Of a stretch of DNA of 64,000 nt, positions 28,659 to 41,352 are shown piece by piece. A model generated the notes under the pieces. That model searched no databases and was not told the DNA's origin. It saw only the letters and a program-made list of their open reading frames with translations. This DNA comes from an uncultured Chloroflexia bacterium. GTDB lineage: Bacteria; Chloroflexota; Anaerolineae; Anaerolineales; UBA4823. The stretch lies in contig CAWBYY010000004.1 in NCBI GenBank assembly GCA_963793095.1, positions 305,107-369,106 of the forward strand. The letters run 5' to 3'. The position numbers and the translations under genes were made by a program. The stretch's first letter is position 1, and each line of letters starts with the position of its first letter.

Positions 28659-28750
28659 ATTAAACGGAAACCGGTTATCTCCCGATATAAAATTATTTAT
28701 TCCGATAGGCGACAGGAAAGGATCAGCTGGAGAAGTCGCATTTCAAATTT

Positions 28751-29056
28751 TCAACCATTCCCCATTTTTGATACTGCGCTTATATTCATGGCATCGGAAA
28801 GAAGGATATCAATATGTTCTTTTTCGATATCCTTGATTGAAATTAATTTTTGCCTGGCCGTATCGCCGGAGATTATCCTGACACTGGAACGGGGAATTTT
28901 CAGAATTGTTGACAGATATTTAATCAGGGCTTTATTCGCTTGTCCTTTTTCAGGCTTCTCTTTTATCCGGATTTTATAAGTACCATCCGAAAGAATATCA
29001 TAAATCTCAGTTCTTTGTGCCTTGGGAATTACCCGGACTTTGATGCAGGATTCCAT
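28751..29056 (-). CDS. yggU: DUF167 (YggU) protein
   Basis: IKVRVIPKA, KPEKGQANKALI and SGDTARQK. Confidence 0.88.
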   Translation of the reverse strand: MESCIKVRVIPKAQRTEIYDILSDGTYKIRIKEKPEKGQANKALIKYLSTILKIPRSSVRIISGDTARQKLISIKDIEKEHIDILLSDAMNISAVSKMGNG

Positions 29057-29099
29057 TTTACTGCACACAAACCAATAATTTTTATACCCACGATAACTA

Positions 29100-29354
29100 T
29101 TAGAATATATTACGAATGAACATATTGATTATTTGAAGGATAACAATCAAAATTATCGGGCTGAAATCAAACATGCCAACTGGAGGGATTAATCGGCGGA
29201 TAGGCTTTAACATTGGTTCAACTATCCGGTCAAAAAACTGGCGCACAGGATGATAGGGAGGTATAAAAAATGTCAGCACTGCCTGGATAATTACTACCAG
29301 GATTACCAGTTGGATAAATCTTGAAATGAGATAAGGTATCAACTCCATAATCAA
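29100..29354 (-). CDS. yggT: YggT/YlmG family membrane protein
   Basis: IVEPMLKPIRRLIPPVGMFDFSPII. Confidence 0.92.
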   Translation of the reverse strand: MIMELIPYLISRFIQLVILVVIIQAVLTFFIPPYHPVRQFFDRIVEPMLKPIRRLIPPVGMFDFSPIILIVILQIINMFIRNIF

Positions 29355-29374: not shown

Positions 29375-30101
29375 TTATCGAGAGCCCATGATGGCGGTAC
29401 CAATTCTGACAATCGTCGCTCCTTCTTCAACAGCAGTTTCATAATCAGCGCTCATTCCCATCGATAGTTCTATCCATTCATTTTCAGGCAGTGAATGCCT
29501 AAGGTAAGATTGTAATTTTCTCAATTTCTTAAAATAAGGCCGCACTTTTTCCTTATCCAAAAAAAGAGGCGGCATTGTCATCAATCCAGTGACTTCGAGG
29601 TTATCGAGTGAGATTATTTGTTCGATCTGTGGTATTAAACTTTCCCACTTATCTTCCTGCCATGCAGAAAAACCGTACTTTGATTCTTCAGCGCTCAGAT
29701 TAAAATTCAAACAAAACCGGCGCCTTTCTATTAGCCTCGCCTAGAAATCGATCCAGGCGTTTTGCCAGTTTCAGGCTGTCCAAAGATTGTACACAATGAA
29801 AATTTTCGCTAACCAGCCGAGCTTTACGACTTTGTATATGCCCAATCATATGCCATTCTATATCACTGCAATCAGAAAAATGATCAATTTTACCGATCGC
29901 TTCCTGGACATAATTTTCTCCAAAGGTTCGAATTCCAGCATTGTAAGCCTGCTCAATTTTTCCAACGGATTGGCCTTTAGTAACGACTACCAGTTGGACC
30001 TCATCCGGGTTCCTGCCAGATGAGATAGCGGCATTTCCTATTCTCTCCAAAACTTCCCGGTAATTTTTACAGATGGAATTATTATCCAATTTATTTCCCA
30101 A
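29375..30101 (-). CDS. yggS: PLP homeostasis protein YggS/PLPBP; one +1 frameshift
   Basis: LVVVTK, FGENYVQE, WHMIGHIQSRK, GLMTMPP, LSMGMSADY and RIGTAIMG; extra base in the A-run at 29702-29705. Confidence 0.92.
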
Positions 30102-30146: not shown

Positions 30147-30944
30147 TTATATATTCAACGCAATCAGAGCTCCAAATCTTCCCGTTTTCCCCTTCTCGCC
30201 GCGATGCGAATACCAATCAGAGGGGGTACAGGCAGTGCAGATTGGAGAGATTTCGATGGTTTTGACACCTGCTGATTTTAAATTATGTTCATTGGCTTTT
30301 TTCAAATCAAACTTTTTTTTCTCCCTGCTTTTACTTGCAGTTTCAAATAAGAAGGTATTTGCTCCAGTTCCATATGAATCTCTAACTGATTTGATAACCT
30401 CCGCGCCAACCTCGTAGTGTTCAGTACAGATTGATGGTCCTATGACGGCAATAATATCTCCAGTTCTTGAGCCGTATTCATGCGACATCTTTTTTACAGT
30501 TTCCGAGGCTATTCTCCCAACTGTTCCCTTCCAACCTGCATGGGTTATTCCGATTACCTTTTTTTCCGGGTCATATAGGAAAATTGGAACGCAGTCAGCA
30601 AACCGCATAAACAGCCCCAGGCCATTTACGTTTGTTATCAACGCATCCGCTTTTTCTATCTCGGTTTTTTTATTTCTTATTGAATTCACTCGAATGACTT
30701 TATTGCTGTGAACCTGCCATACATCAAAAATTCTGCGATTGTCCAATTCAAATGTTTTGAATACTCGTTCTCGGTTTTCAATTACCCGGTTAATGTCATC
30801 GCCGACAGTTAGACCTACATTTAACGTGTTCCAGGGTTCAGGACTGACCCCTCCATGTCTTGTAAAAACACCGTGCAAGATATTATGGCCGTTGAAAATA
30901 TCAAATGTTAAATATCGAGTGTATTCAGTTTGGTGAAAATGCAT
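30147..30944 (-). CDS. pgeF: PgeF/YfiH/YlmD family (laccase-like/purine nucleoside phosphorylase)
   Basis: FTRHGGVS, LNVG, QVHS, ADALIT, FADCVPI, HAGWKG, GPSI, CTAC and SHRG. Confidence 0.93.
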   Translation of the reverse strand: MHFHQTEYTRYLTFDIFNGHNILHGVFTRHGGVSPEPWNTLNVGLTVGDDINRVIENRERVFKTFELDNRRIFDVWQVHSNKVIRVNSIRNKKTEIEKADALITNVNGLGLFMRFADCVPIFLYDPEKKVIGITHAGWKGTVGRIASETVKKMSHEYGSRTGDIIAVIGPSICTEHYEVGAEVIKSVRDSYGTGANTFLFETASKSREKKKFDLKKANEHNLKSAGVKTIEISPICTACTPSDWYSHRGEKGKTGRFGALIALNI

Positions 30945-30987: not shown

Positions 30988-31980
30988 TTAAATCCTATCC
31001 TGATGAGTGCGTTTGAATTTTCCTGCTAAAATCTTACGTGTATCAGCCATTGTCTCTTCAATAAGAGGATAGCCAAACCAGGCAGTTGTAAATCCGAATA
31101 AAGCGCCTGTAATAGACCTTAACACAGGTGTGCTCTCCCGATATGGCAGCAAGCTGAATGGAGGCTGGCTGATAATCTGGCTTATGCCGTCCAATCCAAT
31201 AGGCACAATTCCAAATATAATCCAAAGGTACCAGGGAAGTGGTTTTAAACGTTTCCCGCTTAACGCATAAATAAGCCCAAATAATAAAATCGCAGCATAA
31301 GTTGCAATATCGCGCTGGCACAATGCAACCTTATAACCAACATGTTCATCGCCATAATACCCACGGGCGGCAAATATATCGTGGGCTGAATTCCCTTCAC
31401 CTAAACCAGTCGCCTCTGAAAAACCCATCCATTCTTCAAGCCCAGCTTGGGATCTTGGATAAAAAGGTTGATCTCCAAATATAAAGAAAGACCTGAATGA
31501 CAGCTGGTGGCAAACCATACCATACCCGCGATATATCAGCAGGGCAGGTGTTTTATAACCGGATTTCATTAATATGGGGGCAACGAATGGCAGGCCAATA
31601 TAAAAAGCGGCAAGGATATTGAACACTGCCAGGTAATGTTTTGAAAACCAGAATGTAAAATTATCAGCCTTCGTCCAGCTTTCAGGCTTGCGGACTATAG
31701 CGTTTTTTCCTCGGATCTCTTGCGGATGTTTTTCAGAAACTTCCTGAACAGCCAGTAATGTTCTCGTGATATCTTCATTTTTAAAAGGTGCTTTTAACTG
31801 ATACGAACCCACCTCAAGAACCGGAATGCTCTCTCCATATGTTCTTTTCAAATCTGGATCGCTATCAATATTGACAATTGTTAACTTATGTGGAATTTGA
31901 TTTTCCAGTGAGCTTAAATGTTCAATTGCTTCATCACATAAGTGGCATTCATTACGGCTGAAAAGCACAACCTCTATCAT
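30988..31980 (-). CDS. Glutaredoxin-like (CHLC) domain fused to DUF2085 membrane domain
   Basis: N-terminal FSRNECHLC...SIPVL; C-terminal MVCHQLSFRSF, ALCQRD, PIGLDGISQ and RSITGALFG. Confidence 0.75.
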   Translation of the reverse strand: MIEVVLFSRNECHLCDEAIEHLSSLENQIPHKLTIVNIDSDPDLKRTYGESIPVLEVGSYQLKAPFKNEDITRTLLAVQEVSEKHPQEIRGKNAIVRKPESWTKADNFTFWFSKHYLAVFNILAAFYIGLPFVAPILMKSGYKTPALLIYRGYGMVCHQLSFRSFFIFGDQPFYPRSQAGLEEWMGFSEATGLGEGNSAHDIFAARGYYGDEHVGYKVALCQRDIATYAAILLFGLIYALSGKRLKPLPWYLWIIFGIVPIGLDGISQIISQPPFSLLPYRESTPVLRSITGALFGFTTAWFGYPLIEETMADTRKILAGKFKRTHQDRI

Positions 31981-32552
31981 TCTGCTCCAATTTTTTCCAT
32001 GTATTTATGGAATTGATCTTCATTCATCACGCCCACATGAAGTGCCTGAATCAATCCCTCCCGGTCTACAAAAAATGTGGTGGGAAAACCAAGAACCTGA
32101 TATTCCAATGCGACATGAGCATCCAAATCATATAAGATTTCGTATGTCAATCCCATTTTTTCAATAAATGGCAACACTTCATCTTCAGATTCTTGATTGT
32201 TTACAGCCAGAATTTCTAAATCAGGGGAATATTCTTCATACATCTCTTGAAACATGGGCATTTCATAGACACACGGACCACACCAAGTCGCCCAGAAGTT
32301 TACAACTACAACCTTTCCCCTTAAATCAGATAGTCTGATGGTTTCCCCCGCGATATTCTGTAATTCAATATCAGGCGCGGGTTTGCCTACTGAGGGGACT
32401 GAAACAGATCCTTCATTACCAGCTGAGATTTCTGCATTTCTATTCCTCAGGATACCTGCGCCTGCAAAGGTAATAAATCCCAGGCCAGCACCAATCAGGA
32501 TACCTACAGTGATTTTATTCAATCCATTTTTTCTGGTGGGGTTTGCCGGCAA
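31977..32552 (-). CDS. Membrane-anchored TlpA/ResA thiol-disulfide oxidoreductase
   Basis: N-terminal TM, GKPAPD, VNFWATWCGPC and cis-Pro FPTTFF. Confidence 0.92.
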   Translation of the reverse strand: MPANPTRKNGLNKITVGILIGAGLGFITFAGAGILRNRNAEISAGNEGSVSVPSVGKPAPDIELQNIAGETIRLSDLRGKVVVVNFWATWCGPCVYEMPMFQEMYEEYSPDLEILAVNNQESEDEVLPFIEKMGLTYEILYDLDAHVALEYQVLGFPTTFFVDREGLIQALHVGVMNEDQFHKYMEKIGAE

Positions 32553-32608
32553 GTTTATTCCTCCAACAGGTTGAAATTTATTTAGTTAATTTTATGCTAT
32601 GCACAAAA

Positions 32609-33520
32609 TCAAGATATCCCATCCGATTCTGCCGGGTCATCCTTGATCATCAAAGACATTGGTAGAGCGATTGGGAATAAACCGGTGCCAAAGAACCACC
32701 AGTCAAGGAATTTCCTCCCTTTTCTGGAAGCGATTACAGCCGGGATTAACCCCAGTAAAATAAGCGCCACAAACAAGATCAGTAACAATCTGCCTAATTC
32801 AAGTTCATTAAATACGCCGAAGAATGTCCCAAAACTTGCCAGTCGTTCAAATCTGCCGGTAAAAAGGAGTACACCAATGATAATTAGCAGTATTCCGCTA
32901 ATTTTTTCAACATAATAAGCCACTTTAGCGTAGCGCCTGATTCCATTTGCAATGATGTCAATTTCCACCGATGCAATCAGGAATGGGACCGCAAGTCCAG
33001 CTGAATAAGCCGCCAGTAACAATCCTCCATGAACGGAAGAACCTCCACTAAGAGAAATCGTTAGAATCGTACCGAGAATTGGTCCCACACAGGGCGACCA
33101 TCCTGCTGAAAAGAAAACACCCATCAAAAATGATGCAAGGTAACCGCGTTTGCGATCGGGTGCAGATTGGGGACGTAAATCATATTCTAAAAATTTTATC
33201 CGGTACATTCCAGTCAAATGGATGCCAAAAATAATTACAACAATGCCGCCAATTTTTGTGAGCCAGTACCGCAGGTCATACAGAATTCCTCCAATGGCGG
33301 AAGCAGCTATACCAAGCAAGATAAAAATAACACTGAAACCCACCACAAATGCCAGCCCATGACTGAACGCAATCCAGGAGTTTTTCCGTTCACCAGAAGC
33401 CACCGACCGGCCACCAAGATATCCAATATAAGCCGGTACCAGGGCAAACACACAGGGTGATAAAAACGACGCCAATCCAGCTAAAAAAGCAAGCCAAATA
33501 CCAATATCTGCTAGCTCCAT
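32609..33520 (-). CDS. ccdA: CcdA transmembrane electron transporter with C-terminal extension
   Basis: SFLSPCVFALVP and AGWSPCVGPILG carry both redox Cys. Confidence 0.92.
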   Translation of the reverse strand: MELADIGIWLAFLAGLASFLSPCVFALVPAYIGYLGGRSVASGERKNSWIAFSHGLAFVVGFSVIFILLGIAASAIGGILYDLRYWLTKIGGIVVIIFGIHLTGMYRIKFLEYDLRPQSAPDRKRGYLASFLMGVFFSAGWSPCVGPILGTILTISLSGGSSVHGGLLLAAYSAGLAVPFLIASVEIDIIANGIRRYAKVAYYVEKISGILLIIIGVLLFTGRFERLASFGTFFGVFNELELGRLLLILFVALILLGLIPAVIASRKGRKFLDWWFFGTGLFPIALPMSLMIKDDPAESDGIS

Positions 33521-33549
33521 AAAGTATTATCTCCAGTAGAGAACAAGGT

Positions 33550-34644
33550 TTAAGTTTGTTCTTTTACAAATACTTTTGTACTGCCTTCACCAGAAATAGT
33601 TATTTCTCCTGGATCCGGTTCAACAACAGGCAATGTCCAGCGGAAGATCCACTTGGCATCCTCCGGATAGGCATTCACACAACCGTGCGATTTAGCGATT
33701 CCATAACTGTTGTGCCAAAAAGTGGAATGAATTGCCATACCTTTTCCAGAAAAAAGGACAGTCCATCCAATCCCAGGTAGATCATAACCGCCACCGGTTG
33801 TACCACCGGTCATATGTACCGATACCAGTTTACGCCAGATAGTGTGATTTCCAACCGGTGTTGCCCATTTATCAGACTGGTTACCTTCTGAATCGTATCT
33901 CCCGCCAGTTGAGACTCTGCAAAAATAGACCTCATTATTTCCCTCGAAACAGGAGAGCGTCTGGTGAAGCAGGTCTACTTCAACTCTTTTATCCTGAACA
34001 TCCGGTGAAAGCGGCGTCATTTCTTCATCACTGATCACTCGCAGCGCTTCCGCCTTCACCCAAAAGATATCCCCAAATGAACCATATTTTTCCATAACCC
34101 GAAACCAGGTCTGGCCAGTCTCATCAACCTTTATTTCATCAACCCACATGATCTGGCTATAGTATAGGCGTGGGGTGTTTGTGTTCTTCAACCAGGGTGA
34201 TCGGGCTGGTGGATTTGCAAGCACCAGATCGACAAAAGGTACACTCACCTCCACCCAAACTCCTTCCGGTTTTGGTAATTCTGACAGCGGTTTATTAGGC
34301 AAATTGTAGACCTGCTGCAGGTTGGGAGCGTATACATAACCTTCGGGGATTTCGACAAATCTTTGATTTATCCAAAGCGGTCTGGAACCGGTTACCTCGC
34401 GCAGCCAGGGAACAACATCGTCTATATTTAATTCTCCAACATCGGGACTTTCGTCGTCTGGATGCAGTTTAATCGGTACTCTGCCATCAAGCACACGTCC
34501 AAGTTTTTCAGCATTTGGAAATTCAACAGTATTACTTCGACTGAACGTGTAAAATAACGAATCTAAAGGTTGAATATAAACCAGACTCAATCCCGCTGCT
34601 GCCGCTTTAATAAATTCACGGCGTGTGATGTTGTTTGCACTCAT
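33550..34644 (-). CDS. Tat-exported L,D-transpeptidase (YkuD domain)
   Basis: ITRREFIK twin-arginine motif, VSTG, TPVG and AIHSTFWHN...SHGCVN. Confidence 0.9.
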   Translation of the reverse strand: MSANNITRREFIKAAAAGLSLVYIQPLDSLFYTFSRSNTVEFPNAEKLGRVLDGRVPIKLHPDDESPDVGELNIDDVVPWLREVTGSRPLWINQRFVEIPEGYVYAPNLQQVYNLPNKPLSELPKPEGVWVEVSVPFVDLVLANPPARSPWLKNTNTPRLYYSQIMWVDEIKVDETGQTWFRVMEKYGSFGDIFWVKAEALRVISDEEMTPLSPDVQDKRVEVDLLHQTLSCFEGNNEVYFCRVSTGGRYDSEGNQSDKWATPVGNHTIWRKLVSVHMTGGTTGGGYDLPGIGWTVLFSGKGMAIHSTFWHNSYGIAKSHGCVNAYPEDAKWIFRWTLPVVEPDPGEITISGEGSTKVFVKEQT

Positions 34645-34661
34645 TTTTTGCTAACCAGGCT

Positions 34662-35768
34662 TTATCCTTCAATTACACCAACTTGTGTACTATTCTCTCC
34701 AGTTACAGTAACATCTACCATTCCTGGATCATACTGAACAGACGGCAGAGACCAGCGGAAAATCCACTTTGCATCCTCAGGATTGCAGTTTACGCAGCCG
34801 TGTGAAACGGGATCGCCAAAGTTATTATGCCAGAATGTTGAATGGATTGCTACTCCGCCGGTTGCGAAAATAGAAGACCACCCAATCCCAGGCAAATCAT
34901 AACCAGCCCCGGTTGTGCCGCCGCTCATCTGCAGGGATATATATTTCCTTGTAAATACATGGCTGCCTGCAGGTGTTTCCCATTTGTCAACTACATTTCC
35001 ATTGATATCAAATTTTGCGCCTGTCGAAACCCTGCAATAATAAACCTCATCATTTCCTTCAAAACAAGACAGGGTTTGATCACTTACATCGACCTGCACA
35101 CGTTTATCTAGCGTTCCTGCATTAATGGGTTGGAGTTCTTCCAAAGTGATTGGACGGAACGCCTCCCCAGCAGCCCATAACATATCCACTCCACCGTAAT
35201 AATTTGGGTTTACCCTATAAAGTGTGTTTCCCTGGGAGTCTTTTCTGATCTGGTCCACCCAGAAAACCTGACTGTAATAAAGCCTTAATGGCAGGCCATC
35301 TTCAAGTTTAAATTTTACCCAAGAATTTGAGGAAGGCTCTTTATCCAGCCTTGCATCCACAAAAGGTACAGTTACCTCTGCCCACATCCCTTTGCCCAAA
35401 CTCGAATCAGGCAACTCAGATATAAGTTGATTAGGACGGTTAAAAACAGGTTGGATGTATGGACCGTAAATATATCCCTCCGGTGTTTCTACCCAACGCT
35501 GGTTGTTGAAGATATAATTCGGCTGATTTCCTACAATTTCCTGGTACCAGGGCAGAACCGCATCCTCATATAAATTCTTGATTGTTTCACTGTTCGGGTC
35601 AGGTTTTAACTTTACTTCCACCATGCCAACGCAAATCCTGCCTAGTTTTTCATCTGCAAAGTTTTTGAATAAAATAGGCAAAGATTTTTCTGGATTATAA
35701 ACTACACCTCCTAACCCTAATCCAGCGATCTTAATAAATTCACGTCGAGTAATTCTGTCCTTCTCCAT
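34662..35768 (-). CDS. Tat-exported L,D-transpeptidase (YkuD domain), tandem paralog
   Basis: ITRREFIK, VSTG, TPAG, GYDLPGIGW and AIHSTFWHN...SHGCVN. Confidence 0.9.
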   Translation of the reverse strand: MEKDRITRREFIKIAGLGLGGVVYNPEKSLPILFKNFADEKLGRICVGMVEVKLKPDPNSETIKNLYEDAVLPWYQEIVGNQPNYIFNNQRWVETPEGYIYGPYIQPVFNRPNQLISELPDSSLGKGMWAEVTVPFVDARLDKEPSSNSWVKFKLEDGLPLRLYYSQVFWVDQIRKDSQGNTLYRVNPNYYGGVDMLWAAGEAFRPITLEELQPINAGTLDKRVQVDVSDQTLSCFEGNDEVYYCRVSTGAKFDINGNVVDKWETPAGSHVFTRKYISLQMSGGTTGAGYDLPGIGWSSIFATGGVAIHSTFWHNNFGDPVSHGCVNCNPEDAKWIFRWSLPSVQYDPGMVDVTVTGENSTQVGVIEG

Positions 35769-35903
35769 GGATTGCTGGTTTATAGTTTTAATGCCTAACC
35801 GAATAAGGATACACTCAAAAAATACACACTCAATAAAAGGACCATAAAATTGGAATTAATATTCAGTGAGAGAAATCAGGTAAAATTTTCGATATTTTAT
35901 GCT

Positions 35904-38366
35904 TTACAGTTTATAACCCTTTATTCGCAGGCTGTTGCTGACTACAAAGATACTGCTAAAAGCCATCGCTCCTGCAGCGAGCATTGGATTTAATAAACCC
36001 ATCGCTGCTGCCGGGATAAGCAGCACATTATAGAAAAAAGCCCAGAACAGGTTCTGTTTTATTGTTTTTAAAGTTTTACGCGAGAGTGAAATGGCATGCG
36101 GCACTCCAATTAAATCACCACTTATCAGGACAATTGGCGCTGCAGCAATTGCCACATCGGTACCAGTTCCGATTGCTATACCTACGTCACTTTCAGCCAG
36201 CGCTGGGGCGTCATTTATACCATCGCCCACCATCGAAACTGATGCACCAGTGGATTTAATTTCTTTTATTTTTTTGGCTTTTTCACCTGGAAGCACTTCC
36301 GCCAGTACTGAATCTACCCCCACCTCTTCTGCGATCGCTTGAGCCGTTCTCAGGTTATCACCGGTTATCATCCACACTTCAAGACCCATTTTGTGCATTT
36401 CACTCACTGCTCTCGCTGACCTCTCCTTTACTGTATCGGCAATTGCCAACAATCCTGCTACATCATCCCCAACAGCGATTAAAACGGCTGTCTTAGCATC
36501 ATTTTGGATTTCTTCAACTTTCTTCTGAAGACCATTTAATCGCAAACCCTGCTCAACCATCATTCTGAAATTTCCAACTCTGATGTTTTTACCTTCAATT
36601 TGAGCTTGAATCCCCATTCCGGATATTGCCTTAAAATTTTCAGGTTGCGATAATGATAAATTAAGATTTTTCGCTTCCGATAGTATCGCCTCACCTAATA
36701 AATGTTCGCTCCCTTGCTCTGCTGATGCGGCCAGCCGTAGTAATTCTGTTTCGTAATATGATTTATCTTCCTGATCTCTGCCCTCTAATAAATAACTGAA
36801 ATTTTCAGAAAGAAATATATCTGTGACTGCAGGTTTACCTTTTGTAATCGTACCGGTCTTATCCAGGACAATTACCCTGACATTTCCAGCCTGTTCCAAA
36901 GCCTCACCATTTTTTATTAGAATACCCGCCTCTGCGCCTTTCCCGGTTCCGACCATCACGGCGGTTGGCGTCGCCAGACCCATCGCACATGGACACGCAA
37001 TCACCAAAACTGCAACCATATTGATAAGAGCCATGGTAAATGCGCTATCTTCAGATCCTGGAGGAACTGGTATTAAAAAATACCAGATTCCAAATGTAAC
37101 CAGCGCGATGACAATTACAATTGGAACAAAAACGGCTGAGACTCTGTCTGCAAGTTTTTGGATCGGCGCTTTGCTGTTCTGGGCTTCCTCTACTAATTTT
37201 ACAATTTGAGCAAGGGTGGTGTCTTTTCCAACCCGCTGTGTTTCAAACTTTATATAGCCAAACTGGTTGATCGTCGCTCCAATAACAGGATCGCCTGGAC
37301 CTTTCTCGACGGGAAGCGATTCTCCGGTGATCATTGATTCATCGACCGAGGTCCGGCCTTCGATAATCTCACCGTCCACTGCTATTTTTTCGCCGGGTCT
37401 GACGATGATGGTATCACCTACTTGAACATCATCCACCTTAGTTATGATCTCCTCGCCGTTCCGTAGGACCCTTGCGTTATTGGGTTGCAGATCAAGAAGA
37501 TTTCGGATAGCGTCGCTTGTTCTCCCGCGAGCACGGGCTTCGAGATATTTTCCGACTTTTATCAGGGTGATTATCACCGCCGAAGTTTCAAAATATACAT
37601 GTCCATCGATAAATCCAAGCACCACCGTTATGGAATAGAAATAAGCTGCGGATGAACCCAACACAATCAATACATCCATATTTGCAGTTCTATTTCGCAG
37701 GGACTTGAAAGCACCGACATAATAATCCCAGCCAACATAAAATTGAACAGGAGTGGCTAAAGCCCACATCAACCAGTTCATCCAAGAAGCATGTTGAATA
37801 TGAGCTGGCAGCAAACCAAAGTCTCGTCCCATCGAAAGAATCAACAGAGGGATTGTAAATACCAGTCCCACGATTAACAATTTTTTCTGGCGTTGGGCTT
37901 CTTTCGCTCTGGCAGCCTGTTCCGCATCCAGGTTATCCATTCCCAGATCAATTACATCGAATCCAAGTGATCTAATTTTTTTTATTACATCTGTTGAGGA
38001 GACCACATTGGGGATAAATTCGATCCTCGCCCGCCCATTCGCTAGATTTACACTTACATTTAACACTCCCTCTATCTGAGCCACACTGCGTTCAATCAGA
38101 CGAGCATCCGAGTCATCGCTCAATCTCTGGATAAGGATTTCGATCTCACCGCTGGCAATTCCATAACCAGCCCGGTCAATCCGGTTTATAAAGTCATCCA
38201 AGTTAGCGATTTCTGGATCGTACAGTATTGCTGCACGCTCAGAAGCCAGGTTGACACTCGCATCTTTTACTCCATCGACTTTTTTCAGGTTACGTTCGAC
38301 GGTTGCAACACAATTAGCGCAAGTCATCCCGGTGATGGGCAGTATCAGGTTTTTTTCTGAAGACAA
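35904..38366 (-). CDS. copA: Cu(I)-exporting P1B-type ATPase
   Basis: [36 protein letters not shown] in TM7 and MAFSS in TM8. Confidence 0.96.
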
Positions 38367-38421
38367 ATTTATCCTCTTATTGGTACAATCGCCGCTGGTT
38401 ATTAAGGGAAATTCTGTGAAT

Positions 38422-38625
38422 TTAATCGGCAGGGTAATTTATTTCTTCAAGCAATGATTTAATTATTTCTTCTGTCGCAGGTGGTTCAAAAGTGATGGTT
38501 GCCTGTTTCGTGGATATCTCTGCTTCTACCGATAAAACTCCTGGTAATTCAGATACTTCAGATTTAACTGTATGAACGCAGTGCCCGCATGAAATGTTTG
38601 GAATACTGTATGTTACCGTTGTCAT
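38422..38625 (-). CDS. copZ: Copper chaperone
   Basis: [13 protein letters not shown] motif; start at MTTVTY. Confidence 0.92.
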
Positions 38626-38685
38626 AATAACCTCCAGAATATTTTTTTTGGCTTTTCGCTGATCCTTTGACAATTTCTTTTCAAA

Positions 38686-38964
38686 TCACGTCCTGGTAGC
38701 GGTTTCAAAAACCTCAGCTATTTCCTTCAGAACTCTTTCTCTTTCATCAACATCCTCACCCCGAACTGCGGTTGTTAAACAGGTATCAAGATGCTGTTCA
38801 AGTATTATCGAGCTTACCCGGTTTAATGCTGCCTGAACAGCCTGGATCTGGCGGATAATATCGATACAGTAAACATCATTATCCATCATTCGAATAATTC
38901 CACCAATATGGCCTTCGATATTCTTCAGTCGCTTGAATGCATCTTCGTGTTTCATTTTATCCAC
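38686..38964 (-). CDS. csoR: Copper-sensing repressor
   Basis: RLKNIEGHIGGI, YCIDIIRQI and EQHLDTC (Cys-His-Cys ligands). Confidence 0.92.
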   Translation of the reverse strand: MDKMKHEDAFKRLKNIEGHIGGIIRMMDNDVYCIDIIRQIQAVQAALNRVSSIILEQHLDTCLTTAVRGEDVDERERVLKEIAEVFETATRT

Positions 38965-38981
38965 TCACATACAACCTGGTT

Positions 38982-39008
38982 ATACCCCCCCCATGGGGGT
39001 CGGGATAT
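38982..39008. promoter_or_regulatory. CsoR-type operator (C-tract/G-tract inverted repeat)
   Basis: Minus strand ATATCCCGACCCCCATGGGGGGGGTAT with a perfect core CCCCCATGGGGG (38988-38999), just downstream of the -10. Confidence 0.75.
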
Positions 39009-39036
39009 TTATATCAAATTTTATCCTTTATGTCAA
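39008..39036 (-). promoter_or_regulatory. Promoter of csoR-copZ-copA
   Basis: TTGACA (39036-39031), 17-nt spacer, TATAAA preceded by TG-n. Confidence 0.7.
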
Positions 39037-39061: not shown

Positions 39062-39835
39062 CTAACGAGCAGTTGGAGATATCGCCTCGAATATTTCAAC
39101 CAGTTCTTGATATGAAACAAATCCTACCCATTCCTTTTGATTTTTACCTTCCCCATCAACCAGAATAAAATGAGGCTCTTTCTGGAAGCGCAATTCCTTT
39201 TTAAAAAATTCATTTGCAGGATCATCGATATCCAGGTATGTGAAAATAATATCCCCGCCATACTTCTCTTCAAGGTTTTGAATCTCTGGTGCAAGGGCCT
39301 GGCAGGCTCCACACCAGAATGCAAAAAATTCGAAAAACTGATATTTTCCGCTGTTTAACTTAACCCGGGTTGGGTCACTTGCCCGGAGTTCAGATTTGAT
39401 CCAGTCAGGTAGTTCTACCGGTGTGCTGATAGTTTCTGGCATAACCGCTGTCTGCGTAATGGCAGCTTGGTTTCCCGTTGGTGTGATTGTAGAATTTATT
39501 ACAGGGATGGTTTCTGTGATAAATTCGCCTGTCGGTGTAAAGAATCCCCTGATAATTGCATTCAGTTCATCCTCCGCCCCCGGAGTCTTATTCAGGTTTC
39601 TTACATTAGTTCCCCTGGGAATTTTGATGGCATTCTCCACTCCGACTCCATTTACTTCCAGCTCCGCTGCAGTCTTTGTGGCTTTCTTCGGAATTCGTTC
39701 TTTAATTCCTGCAGTCGCAGAAGGAGACAATAACGCCTCTATCGGCATTGTTAAAGTCCTGCATGCCAGAAGAACAAACCCAATTATTATCAGGAATGGA
39801 ATAAACCTGATGTGAATCCGGCTATAATACTTCAT
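39062..39835 (-). CDS. Lipoprotein with Thr/Pro-rich linker and C-terminal thioredoxin domain
   Basis: Lipobox LLA-C, low-complexity linker and FFAFWCGAC. Confidence 0.8.
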   Translation of the reverse strand: MKYYSRIHIRFIPFLIIIGFVLLACRTLTMPIEALLSPSATAGIKERIPKKATKTAAELEVNGVGVENAIKIPRGTNVRNLNKTPGAEDELNAIIRGFFTPTGEFITETIPVINSTITPTGNQAAITQTAVMPETISTPVELPDWIKSELRASDPTRVKLNSGKYQFFEFFAFWCGACQALAPEIQNLEEKYGGDIIFTYLDIDDPANEFFKKELRFQKEPHFILVDGEGKNQKEWVGFVSYQELVEIFEAISPTAR

Positions 39836-39985
39836 TTCAATTTGGGCATCTATCCGAGTTATTTATTCAATCTTACCGCACAAAACATTAAAAATAAAAT
39901 TTACCCAAAGTATCAAGGATTTTTACTGTAGCCGCCAGATCAATTGGTTAATGATTTTTTCAATAAACACTTAATTTTATTGTCC

Positions 39986-40591
39986 ATGGAACAACCAGAT
40001 ATTAAGAAAACAAAGAATTCAGCTAACATCATTTTCACAAACAGCAGATGGGCAGCTTTTTCCATAATACTCCTTTTCTCAGGGCTGGTTTGGATTTTTA
40101 TCAGCCGGATCGATCAGACCAGTGTCGGAGCAGAAGGTCAATCCGCCCCGTTTATTGGGTTCGATGCGCCAGAGTTTTCCCTCCTGAATGATAGAGGGGA
40201 AACCGTCTCATCGCTCGACTACCTGGGAAATCCCTTTATTATAAATTTGTGGGCAAGCTGGTGTCCACCATGCAGGGCTGAAATGCCTGCCCTGGAGCGT
40301 GTTTACCAGGAGTACAATAGTGCAGGCTTGGAAATTTTATCGATTAATATTACATCTCAGGATGACAAGCAAAAAGCTATCCAGTTCACCCGGGAAATTG
40401 GGATTTCATTTCCAACCCTTTTTGATGAAAAAGGTCAAATTTCAGAGCTCTATCACCTTCAGGCGCTTCCGACCACTTTTTTTATTGATGAAAATGGCGT
40501 AATCCAGGATATTGTAATTGGAGGCCCGATGTCCGAAACGCTCTTGCGCACCAGGGTTGAGGAAATGTTTAACACTCAGGGTGATCGGTGA
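39986..40591 (+). CDS. Membrane-anchored TlpA/ResA thiol-disulfide oxidoreductase
   Basis: TM segment, GFDAPEFSL, INLWASWCPPC and LPTTFF. Confidence 0.92.
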   Translation: MEQPDIKKTKNSANIIFTNSRWAAFSIILLFSGLVWIFISRIDQTSVGAEGQSAPFIGFDAPEFSLLNDRGETVSSLDYLGNPFIINLWASWCPPCRAEMPALERVYQEYNSAGLEILSINITSQDDKQKAIQFTREIGISFPTLFDEKGQISELYHLQALPTTFFIDENGVIQDIVIGGPMSETLLRTRVEEMFNTQGDR

Positions 40592-41352
40592 TGTTCCCCA
40601 TAATAAATATAGGTCCTTTTGCTATTCAAGCCCCTGGATTGTTTGTGCTAATCGGAATTTGGGGGGGACTTTTCCTGGCTGAAAGATACCTGGATCGCTA
40701 CAAAATTGAACCGAAGAAATTCAATAATCTGGTTTTTATCTCATTAATATCAGGTTTAATTGGCGCCAGGCTATTTTTTGTAATCCAATATTTAGAAATC
40801 TTCCTCCAAAACCCGCTAAGTATTCTTTCAATTAATCCAAATCTTTTTGATATGTTTGGCGGGATAATCTGTGCAATCCTTGCTGGCATGATATTCGGGA
40901 ATAAAAATGGATTTAAACTATGGGTGACTCTGGATGCGATTACGCCTATTCTGGCAGTCCTTTCGATTTCAATCGGTCTGGCGCATCTTGCTTCTGGTTC
41001 CCACTTTGGGATACCAACAAATCTCCCATTTGGAATTGAATTATGGGGACAAATTCGCCACCCTGTACAAATCTATCACATCCTTGCAGCAATGATGATC
41101 CTCGTATTTCTCTGGCCGGGAAGAAAATTTAACGCAGGATTACCACCCGGAGTTTATTTCTTATTTTTTATTTCAATCAGTTCAGCAGCATACCTGTTAA
41201 TTTCGGGATTCCAGGCAAAGAGTCATGTCATTTTTTATGGCTTTCGCAGTGAACAAATAATAGCGTGGATGATACTGGCAATTTGTTTATATGGCATAAA
41301 AAAATTAGGTAACAGGTCGGCTGACCATATTAATAACAAACGATCTCTATGA
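40588..41352 (+). CDS. Lgt-like membrane protein with degenerate signature
   Basis: MFPIINIGP, GLIGARLFFV, RHPVQIY and RSEQ resemble Lgt, but the GRxGNFxNxE motif is replaced by GLAHLASGSH. Confidence 0.7.
   Translation: MMFPIINIGPFAIQAPGLFVLIGIWGGLFLAERYLDRYKIEPKKFNNLVFISLISGLIGARLFFVIQYLEIFLQNPLSILSINPNLFDMFGGIICAILAGMIFGNKNGFKLWVTLDAITPILAVLSISIGLAHLASGSHFGIPTNLPFGIELWGQIRHPVQIYHILAAMMILVFLWPGRKFNAGLPPGVYFLFFISISSAAYLLISGFQAKSHVIFYGFRSEQIIAWMILAICLYGIKKLGNRSADHINNKRSL

Follow-up and report, generated by a model that had tools for sequence, protein, structure and literature searches.

Predicted envelope operon joining L,D-transpeptidase genes to a CcdA–TlpA relay and a DUF2085 protein in Anaerolineales, beside a copper efflux operon

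We analysed a 64,000-nt stretch of contig CAWBYY010000004.1 (assembly GCA_963793095.1) from an uncultured bacterium of the order Anaerolineales (Chloroflexota). This whole stretch is referred to as the window, and coordinates are window positions unless another contig or locus is named. Gene families were assigned by Pfam and NCBIfam profile matches. Twelve co-oriented genes occupy the minus strand from 38964 to 28751, in the order csoR-copZ-copA-LDT1-LDT2-ccdA-tlpA-(Grx-DUF2085)-pgeF-yggS-yggT-DUF167, where LDT1 and LDT2 encode L,D-transpeptidases (LDTs), ccdA and tlpA a thiol-reducing relay, and Grx-DUF2085 a glutaredoxin-like domain fused to a membrane domain. The coordinates and the Pfam and NCBIfam families agree with the first-pass annotation of this DNA, which had described the co-oriented run from csoR into pgeF. 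LDTs rely on one exposed cysteine, and CcdA hands electrons from cytoplasmic thioredoxin to an exported TlpA-type thioredoxin. We know of no mechanism for LDT thiol protection outside Proteobacteria.

LDT1 (34662–35768; this and all following genes on the minus strand unless stated) is composed of a Tat-type signal (TRREFIK), two β-rich N-terminal domains and a YkuD domain (PF03734, 1.9e-18). LDT2 (33550–34644; PF03734, 6.7e-16) is a paralogue of the same architecture, 52% identical to LDT1. Both proteins belong to the YkuD family, as shown by their scores (67.9 and 59.6 bits; cut-off 23.4). The catalytic motif of LDT1 is H309...S322-H323-G324-C325, and the catalytic Cys of LDT2 is C322. Among 106 LDT sequences, G324 and C325 are invariant, and H309, S322 and H323 are conserved in at least 90%. 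Two additional cysteines, C235 and C245 (C232 and C242 in LDT2), lie in the motif LSCFEGxxEVYxCRVSTG; both are kept in at least 90% of the 106 orthologues, and the four other YkuD paralogues of the genome lack this pair. The earlier description of these proteins as single-Cys LDTs is therefore not correct: LDT1 contains five cysteines and LDT2 three, and neither falls in the single-cysteine class of DsbG clients as defined in E. coli.

Both LDTs start with a twin-arginine motif, (S/T)RRxFLK, for which the alignment consensus is SRRxFLK; the second Arg, R8, is invariant and F11 is at least 90% conserved. The Pfam TAT_signal match to an LDT paralogue is weak. In the structure model of LDT1 (pLDDT 86, pTM 0.83), the C-terminal domain is a YkuD β-sandwich that Foldseek matches to LdtMt2, LdtMt1 and Ldtfm at probability 1.00, and the catalytic motif aligns with the SHGC of LdtMt2. 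Strands 232–237 and 240–246 of the model form a tight hairpin in which C235 pairs with V242 and C245 with T232. A disulfide linking C235 and C245 within this hairpin was considered and dropped, because the model register sets both cysteines on opposite faces. We also rejected the idea that these LDTs are the sole cross-linkers, about seven penicillin-binding-protein transpeptidase domains being found in the genome (eight matches, two of which are one split gene). A protein homologue search with LDT1 returned close relatives only, and in a scan of the phylum the LDT architecture was confined to Anaerolineales and one sister genome.

Downstream of the LDT genes, ccdA (32609–33520; PF02683, 2e-17) encodes a DsbD_TM electron conduit with SPC motifs at C23 (LSPCV) and C144 (WSPCV), scoring 63.7 bits against a cut-off of 27.1. 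A C-terminal extension of about residues 235–303 (32609–32815) adds two predicted helices beyond DsbD_TM. This extension varies among relatives, whose CcdA ranges from 226 to 351 aa. The next gene, tlpA (31977–32552; AhpC-TSA/Redoxin), encodes a TlpA/ResA-like thioredoxin with the features of an anchored form: a hydrophobic N-terminal segment and a WCGPC active site that is invariant in 29/29 relatives. It scores below the equivalog cut-offs for ResA (135.4 against 170), TlpA (73.5 against 230) and DsbE (78.5 against 123), and the GxPET motif of CcmG is missing.

The stop codon of tlpA overlaps the start of the Grx-DUF2085 gene (30988–31980) in an ATGA. Pfam matches, alignments and a structure model (pLDDT 94) describe its product as a glutaredoxin-like domain (DUF836, CHLC) of residues 1–84 followed by the four membrane helices of DUF2085, the latter at 55.2 bits for PF09858 against a cut-off of 25. 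Across 98 DUF2085 sequences C157 and H158 are invariant and C221 is at least 90% conserved. By the positive-inside rule, loop 140–221, which carries these residues, would face outward and the CHLC motif of the Grx domain would be cytoplasmic. A DsbB/VKOR-like fold was also considered for DUF2085 and rejected: in a Foldseek search of the PDB only the Grx domain was matched, resembling the DUF836 protein 1TTZ, and no analogue of the membrane part was returned. A literature search for DUF2085 found nothing informative. DUF2085 may provide an outer-face thiol or metal site acting as client or acceptor of CcdA/TlpA.

The genes from LDT1 onward are separated by gaps of 17, 29, 56, −4 (the ATGA overlap), 43 and 45 nt. 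Past LDT1, the first non-coding terminator-like site on the minus strand is a hairpin with a T-run just 3′ of DUF167 (28665–28684), a probable operon end. Upstream of LDT1, alignment of relatives revealed a promoter (35806–35833) with a −35 element TTGAGT (35833–35828), a 16-nt spacer and a −10 element TATCCT (35811–35806); its consensus among relatives is TTGACC-17-TATGCT. It is kept whether or not a cop operon lies upstream, as seen in three aligned relatives without cop. The caveat that the 135-nt gap after copA might hold its own promoter was thus well placed, a conserved σ70-type promoter being found there; the same promoter would split the supposed single run into a cop unit and an LDT unit. 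In our reading of the sequence, the cop genes and the genes from LDT1 to DUF167 would form two transcription units. No terminator-like hairpin was found in the copA-LDT1 gap, so that read-through from the cop promoter is possible. Direct repeats in this gap were examined as a regulator site and proved to be the −35 element and the stretch preceding the −10 of the conserved promoter. Rfam gave no riboswitch or leader RNA match in the gaps at E up to 0.1. About 25 nt 5′ of the LDT −35 element lies a conserved element, CTCTCACTGAATATTAAT (35855–35872, minus strand; consensus CTCTnACnAAACnTTAAT), which may serve as an UP element or bind a regulator.

Conservation of the locus was followed in relatives. 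The LDT1 search yielded 39 loci. An alignment search with Grx-DUF2085 found at least 555 relatives, of which the best 80 were retained; these 80 were all from Anaerolineales or unclassified Chloroflexota and metagenome-assembled. A synteny table was built for 29 loci with 10 kb on each side. LDT1, CcdA, Grx-DUF2085, PgeF and YggT are each present in 29/29 loci, YggS and a zinc-ribbon gene each in 28/29, TlpA in 23/29 and LDT2 in 19/29. CopA is found in 19/29 loci, and two comparison genes of the upstream flank in 19/29 (folE) and 18/29 (comF); the downstream flank genes are kept in 6/29. In a pooled set of 82 distinct loci whose upstream sequence was long enough, an LDT lies directly 5′ of the redox genes or of (Grx-)DUF2085 in 82/82, while both flanks decay. 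CcdA is present in 77/82 (63 canonical and 14 circularly permuted) and TlpA in 50/82. In five loci the LDT abuts DUF2085 without CcdA or TlpA, and pgeF-yggS-yggT still follows downstream. When 27 genomes spread more evenly over the order were scored by gene spacing, about 7 had CcdA and TlpA, about 14 CcdA only, 5 neither, and 1 lacked the cluster, so that the TlpA-containing share is lower than in the pooled loci. These counts establish LDT-(Grx-)DUF2085-pgeF-yggS-yggT as the invariant core, with the relay genes frequent but replaceable.

Circularly permuted CcdA, in which the normally first helix with its FLSPCVLPLVPAY motif sits at the C-terminus, was found at L036:11154–11933, L153:11810–12577, L159:9808–10590 and L136:6228–7130. 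The clusters that carry this type lack both TlpA and a cop operon.

A second type of locus occurs at seven places in five genomes of the order (L153–L159, e.g. L159:4665–10590). Here an LDT of the window family is found with a DUF2933 protein, a stand-alone DUF2085, a NarL-type two-component system and a permuted CcdA. Additional genes encode a Tat-type Rieske protein (L153) and a cupredoxin-like lipoprotein (L159). The LDT of these loci has SRGC in place of SHGC and lacks the second extra Cys. The second locus is missing from the genome of the window. As a rearranged repeat of the association, here with copper-type proteins, it is the best support for a true link of these LDTs and DUF2085/CcdA with stress from metals or redox imbalance; its copies may be one mobile metal-stress block.

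The strict pairing of LDT and DUF2085 suggests an explanation in which these two proteins are the functional pair, DUF2085 being a membrane partner of the Tat-exported LDT, for instance by docking or activating it or by handling a thiol or metal at the outer face of the membrane, and CcdA, TlpA and Grx serving DUF2085 as interchangeable accessories. Only the adjacency LDT-(Grx-)DUF2085-pgeF is never broken, and it persists in the five loci devoid of CcdA and TlpA. The accessories do vary, CcdA being canonical or permuted and TlpA and Grx present or absent. The invariant C157-H158 and the conserved C221 lie on the predicted outer-face loop, and an LDT and a stand-alone DUF2085 are found together once more in the second locus type. 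However, DUF2085 has no LDT neighbour in the loci examined beyond the order. The full Grx-DUF2085 fusion is mostly confined to Anaerolineales, and elsewhere in the phylum DUF2085 mostly stands alone; it occurs there with CcdA-TlpA, ccm genes or copA, and no LDT was found beside it in twenty distant loci. Moreover, with LDTs of this architecture restricted to the order, the pairing could go back to one ancestral event, and neither a structural analogue nor the literature suggests a mechanism for DUF2085. We consider a dedicated LDT–DUF2085 pair of this kind quite unlikely.

Among the distant loci, the arrangements ccmB-ccmC-ccdA-tlpA-DUF2085 (L131:8355–12874), ccmE-ccmB-ccmC-ccdA-tlpA-DUF2085 (L136:3166–8414) and ccmE-ccmF-ccmH-tlpA...DUF2085 (L135:5572–12574) place genes of the CcdA-TlpA-DUF2085 triad within system I cytochrome c maturation (ccm) operons of three sister-order genomes, each without an LDT. 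A ccdA-tlpA-DUF2085 group is found at L133. The ccm-linked TlpA and CcdA are closer to the window copies than to the other paralogues of the window's own genome. The relay together with DUF2085 is therefore the older arrangement, associated with cytochrome c maturation and in some cases with copper, to which Anaerolineales added the LDT and pgeF-yggST. DUF2085 itself may be an undescribed accessory of cytochrome c maturation, since it is placed after ccdA and tlpA at the end of ccm operons.

Since the triad sits in sister-order ccm operons without an LDT, the explanation that CcdA-TlpA(-DUF2085) serves solely as the thioreduction branch of system I cytochrome c maturation stays alive; its position beside the LDTs and pgeF-yggST would then be inherited and no function shared with them. 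The first-pass annotation had noted that no cytochrome c or ccs genes were at hand to explain CcdA/TlpA. This holds locally, no cytochrome c, ccm or ccs gene being found in the window, but not for the genome, where contig C8 carries ccmABC and contig C1 carries ccmE/F/H and multihaem cytochromes. ResB was not found in the genome. Of the 27 genomes sampled in the order, all 21 that keep the cluster CcdA have Ccm, and Ccm is absent from 3/5 of those that lost this CcdA. The association is suggestive; it gives a hypergeometric p of about 0.007 when the 27 genomes are treated as independent and the six without a cluster CcdA are counted as the five losers plus one genome with no cluster (G112), and it rests on one or two lineages. 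The co-loss is phylogenetically clustered and not strict, because two genomes of the same genus retain Ccm without the cluster CcdA.

The window pair belongs to the same two families as the CcdA-ResA/CcmG thioreduction branch and has its homologous triad in the sister-order ccm operons. It differs from that branch in that the ccm genes of this genome are on other contigs, together with a CcmG-type thioredoxin of their own (GVPETYIID) beside ccmA at C8:83723–84117, and in that the window TlpA has neither the CcmG signature nor an equivalog-level match to ResA or TlpA. The genome also contains three CcdA paralogues, two besides that of the window, and several TlpA-like genes. Finally, the LDT-relay adjacency holds in 77/82 loci while both flanks decay, and a second, rearranged LDT/DUF2085/CcdA locus exists. 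On balance an exclusive role in cytochrome c maturation seems somewhat unlikely. A CcdA/TlpA pair distant from ccm genes should nevertheless not be assumed during annotation to be free of such a role. A second CcdA gene belongs to another thiol-redox locus, at the end of a contig (C8:17–2014), where it lies between two genes for thioredoxin-like proteins, the first of which follows a VKOR-like fragment.

The three genes upstream of LDT1 form a copper efflux operon. Its promoter (39008–39036, minus strand) has a −35 element TTGACA (39036–39031), a 17-nt spacer and a −10 element TATAAA (39013–39008), and a predicted CsoR-type operator, ATACCCCCCCCATGGGGGTCGGGATAT (38982–39008), forms a G/C-tract inverted repeat abutting the −10. 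The repressor gene csoR (38686–38964; PF02583, 1.3e-25) encodes the C33/H58/C62 (C-H-C) ligand set of a copper sensor. It is followed by copZ (38422–38673; PF00403, 4e-15, residues 21–80 matched), an HMA copper chaperone (CGHC) whose actual start is probably the ATG at about 38625, and by copA (35904–38366; TIGR01511, 586 bits against 397), a P1B-1 Cu(I)-exporting ATPase (GMTCANC, CPC, DKTGT, YN, MxxSS). The C-H-C CsoR, the G/C-tract operator at the promoter and the CPC ATPase together identify a CsoR-regulated cop operon. The whole window was scanned for C4-N(2-8)-G4 palindromes, and the csoR operator was the sole one; no second CsoR-type operator was found upstream of LDT1 or elsewhere in the window. 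The relay genes, with a promoter of their own and no CsoR-type operator, show no sign of copper-responsive control of the Scs/dsbDEG type, although read-through from cop is possible.

These data bear on the proposal of the first-pass annotation that the run is a copper-linked module protecting the LDTs. The conserved linkage of LDT with CcdA (and TlpA) stands, as its neighbourhood check on the LDT side has shown. The copper part is not supported: the cop unit is separate and holds the only CsoR operator, and cop adjoins 34/62 of the pooled loci with enough upstream sequence to be scored, close to background synteny on that side. A single CsoR-controlled, copper-responsive module, with copper efflux tied to a relay restoring LDTs that copper has poisoned, would be consistent with the common orientation of the genes, with possible read-through across the copA-LDT1 gap and with the cop genes adjoining those 34 loci. 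It also finds some echo in rearranged neighbourhoods of two distant Chloroflexota genomes, copA-tlpA2-lgt-DUF2085-DUF2085 (L134) and copA-tlpA-DUF2085-DUF2085-FtrD-like (L140), and in the cupredoxin and DUF2933 of the second LDT locus. The inhibition of LDTs by copper, which the annotation had invoked, is published (Peters 2018, cited in PMC12729407). However, the LDT operon promoter is its own and is conserved in species without an upstream cop operon, and a CsoR-type operator is absent from the gap and from the rest of the window except at csoR. The copA count in the synteny table is no better than those of folE and comF, and cop genes accompany the permuted-CcdA type of cluster in 0/12 loci: the copper operon is retained no better than ordinary neighbours. 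We regard such a module as improbable, and in annotation the adjacent copper operon should not be read as the same regulon as the LDT operon. A copZ lying directly 5′ of the LDT at two loci (L039 and L096) was examined as a sign of copper control and rejected, this copZ being a truncated remnant without an operator. Elsewhere in the genome (C7:17864–18855), a TlpA-like lipoprotein paralogue is followed by a CsoR-type box (ACACCCCCCCTATCCTTGGGGGGGGAT) immediately 5′ of paired genes for a GAF histidine kinase and a response regulator; the box may mark a second copper-responsive unit.

Our favoured reading is that the LDTs and DUF2085 are expressed together with a CcdA-to-TlpA hub of ccm-linked ancestry, which probably keeps their exposed thiols reduced, and that copper efflux is a neighbour under its own regulation. 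We hold it tentatively, at a probability of roughly 0.45. In this scheme CsoR would repress the csoR-copZ-copA efflux operon, and the envelope operon would run from its own σ70 promoter. From what is known of the families, CcdA would take electrons from a thioredoxin-type donor in the cytoplasm and deliver them through the membrane to the anchored TlpA; that the tethered Grx-like domain is the local donor to CcdA is speculative. The relay would descend from the CcdA-TlpA-DUF2085 triad of sister-order ccm operons and most likely act as a multi-client reductant hub, like DsbD in E. coli, captured in Anaerolineales into a cell-wall operon. The hub would probably hold the thiols of the Tat-exported, three-cysteine LDTs reduced, the identity of these clients being suggested by conserved co-location only. 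It may likewise serve the outer-face Cys/His site of DUF2085, and may still supply cytochrome c maturation. The role of copper would be indirect: such thiols are oxidised or bound by copper, transcription from the cop promoter may extend into the LDT operon, and dedicated copper control of the LDT operon is absent.

Several points weigh against this reading. The case for the LDTs as clients is one of guilt by association within a single order. Of the 82 clusters, all of which keep the LDT, 32 lack TlpA and 5 have neither CcdA nor TlpA; the persistence of the LDT without these two proteins shows that it is not strictly dependent on a local relay. Co-transcription of the LDT operon is predicted from gene spacing and promoter conservation. 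A simple regulatory disulfide between C235 and C245 is unlikely, judging from the modelled hairpin. Finally, the presence of Ccm in every sampled genome with a cluster CcdA, and the lack of this CcdA in all three genomes without Ccm, fit a cytochrome c role at least as well.

A further possibility, which we rate as unlikely, is that DUF2085, with or without Grx, is an undescribed outer-face Cys/His component of CcdA conduits, working as acceptor or as parallel relay, and has become a dedicated LDT partner in Anaerolineales. If so, the DUF2085-LDT partnership would be a new thiol- or metal-dependent control point of cell-wall cross-linking, and sister orders would use the same DUF2085 component in cytochrome c maturation.

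The component families are all known, and the LDT-protection idea at the centre of the favoured hub reading has a precedent in E. coli, as the first-pass annotation had pointed out. There, DsbD with DsbG/DsbC keeps the catalytic Cys of the YkuD LDTs YbiS, ErfK and YnhG reduced, and hubs of the DsbD type have several client proteins, among them CcmG and the DsbG that protects LDTs (PMC10907172). In both cases an exported protein of thioredoxin fold is the known or predicted recipient of electrons from a membrane conduit of the DsbD/CcdA family. However, E. coli has a three-domain DsbD and the window a minimal CcdA; DsbG is dimeric, whereas the window thioredoxin is a membrane-anchored protein of the TlpA/ResA type; and the relay genes, unlinked to LDT genes in E. 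coli, are physically linked to them in the window. The window LDTs are Tat-type proteins with three conserved cysteines, unlike those of E. coli, and their protection is proposed here from the gene arrangement. Salmonella ScsABCD and P. aeruginosa dsbDEG are copper-induced envelope thiol systems that combine a DsbD-like membrane reductase with a TlpA/CcmG-like anchored thioredoxin and are associated with copper tolerance (PMC10907172; bioRxiv 10.1101/2020.08.17.255257). The window relay resembles them in its two components but differs in that no copper-responsive element was found for its genes, that the window system has no ScsA or ScsC homologue, and that it sits in a peptidoglycan-related operon.

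A recent review of LDTs mentions neither DsbG, thioredoxins nor Chloroflexota. What is new here is the physical linkage, throughout the order, of LDT genes with a relay of CcdA type and DUF2085 within the pgeF-yggST group, together with a three-cysteine, Tat-type LDT family and permuted CcdA variants; annotators should be aware that circularly permuted CcdA genes exist in this group. The cluster is a testable candidate for LDT thiol protection in a different type of envelope, in an order of abundant, mostly uncultured bacteria. It also gives DUF2085 a first functional context, with CcdA, TlpA, LDTs, ccm genes and copper proteins as partners.

The distal part of the LDT operon contains pgeF (30147–30944; TIGR00726, 194.6 bits against a cut-off of 141), encoding a peptidoglycan editing factor of the YlmD/YfiH family, yggS (ylmE; 29375–30101), encoding a PLP-binding protein, yggT (ylmG; 29100–29354; PF02325, 3.9e-18), encoding a membrane protein, and, as the final gene of the unit, DUF167 (yggU; 28751–29068; PF02594, 6.3e-23). 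The order pgeF-yggS-yggT, a conserved group of cell-envelope genes, is that of B. subtilis ylmD-ylmE-(sepF)-ylmG, which lies downstream of ftsZ. In contrast to B. subtilis, the window group is preceded by the LDT, CcdA, TlpA and DUF2085 genes, and sepF and divIVA were not seen in the run. A frameshift at 29700–29710 splits yggS into two overlapping open reading frames, and in relatives the gene is intact, as adjacent in-frame matches. Similar breaks affect ccmF (C1:946–2773), the CcmG-like gene (C8:83723–84117) and another LDT (C2:1406017–1407094), for which reason assembly indels are more likely than pseudogenes.

The annotation had also placed a thioredoxin lipoprotein and a second TlpA next to the run, and both are indeed found upstream. 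The first is a Trx-fold lipoprotein (39062–39835, minus strand; Pfam Thioredoxin, 2e-11) with lipobox LLAC and active site WCGAC, present in 16/29 full-length relatives. The second, divergent gene, tlpA2 (39944–40591, plus strand), encodes a membrane-anchored protein with WCPPC and overlaps lgt (40588–41352), the pair spanning 39944–41352. The stretch as a whole is best explained as three units: the cop operon, the envelope operon from LDT1 to DUF167, and the flanking thioredoxin genes (Trx lipoprotein and tlpA2-lgt). An overlapping tlpA2-lgt pair recurs in a distant Chloroflexota genome, beside copA and two DUF2085 genes (L134:9692–10945).

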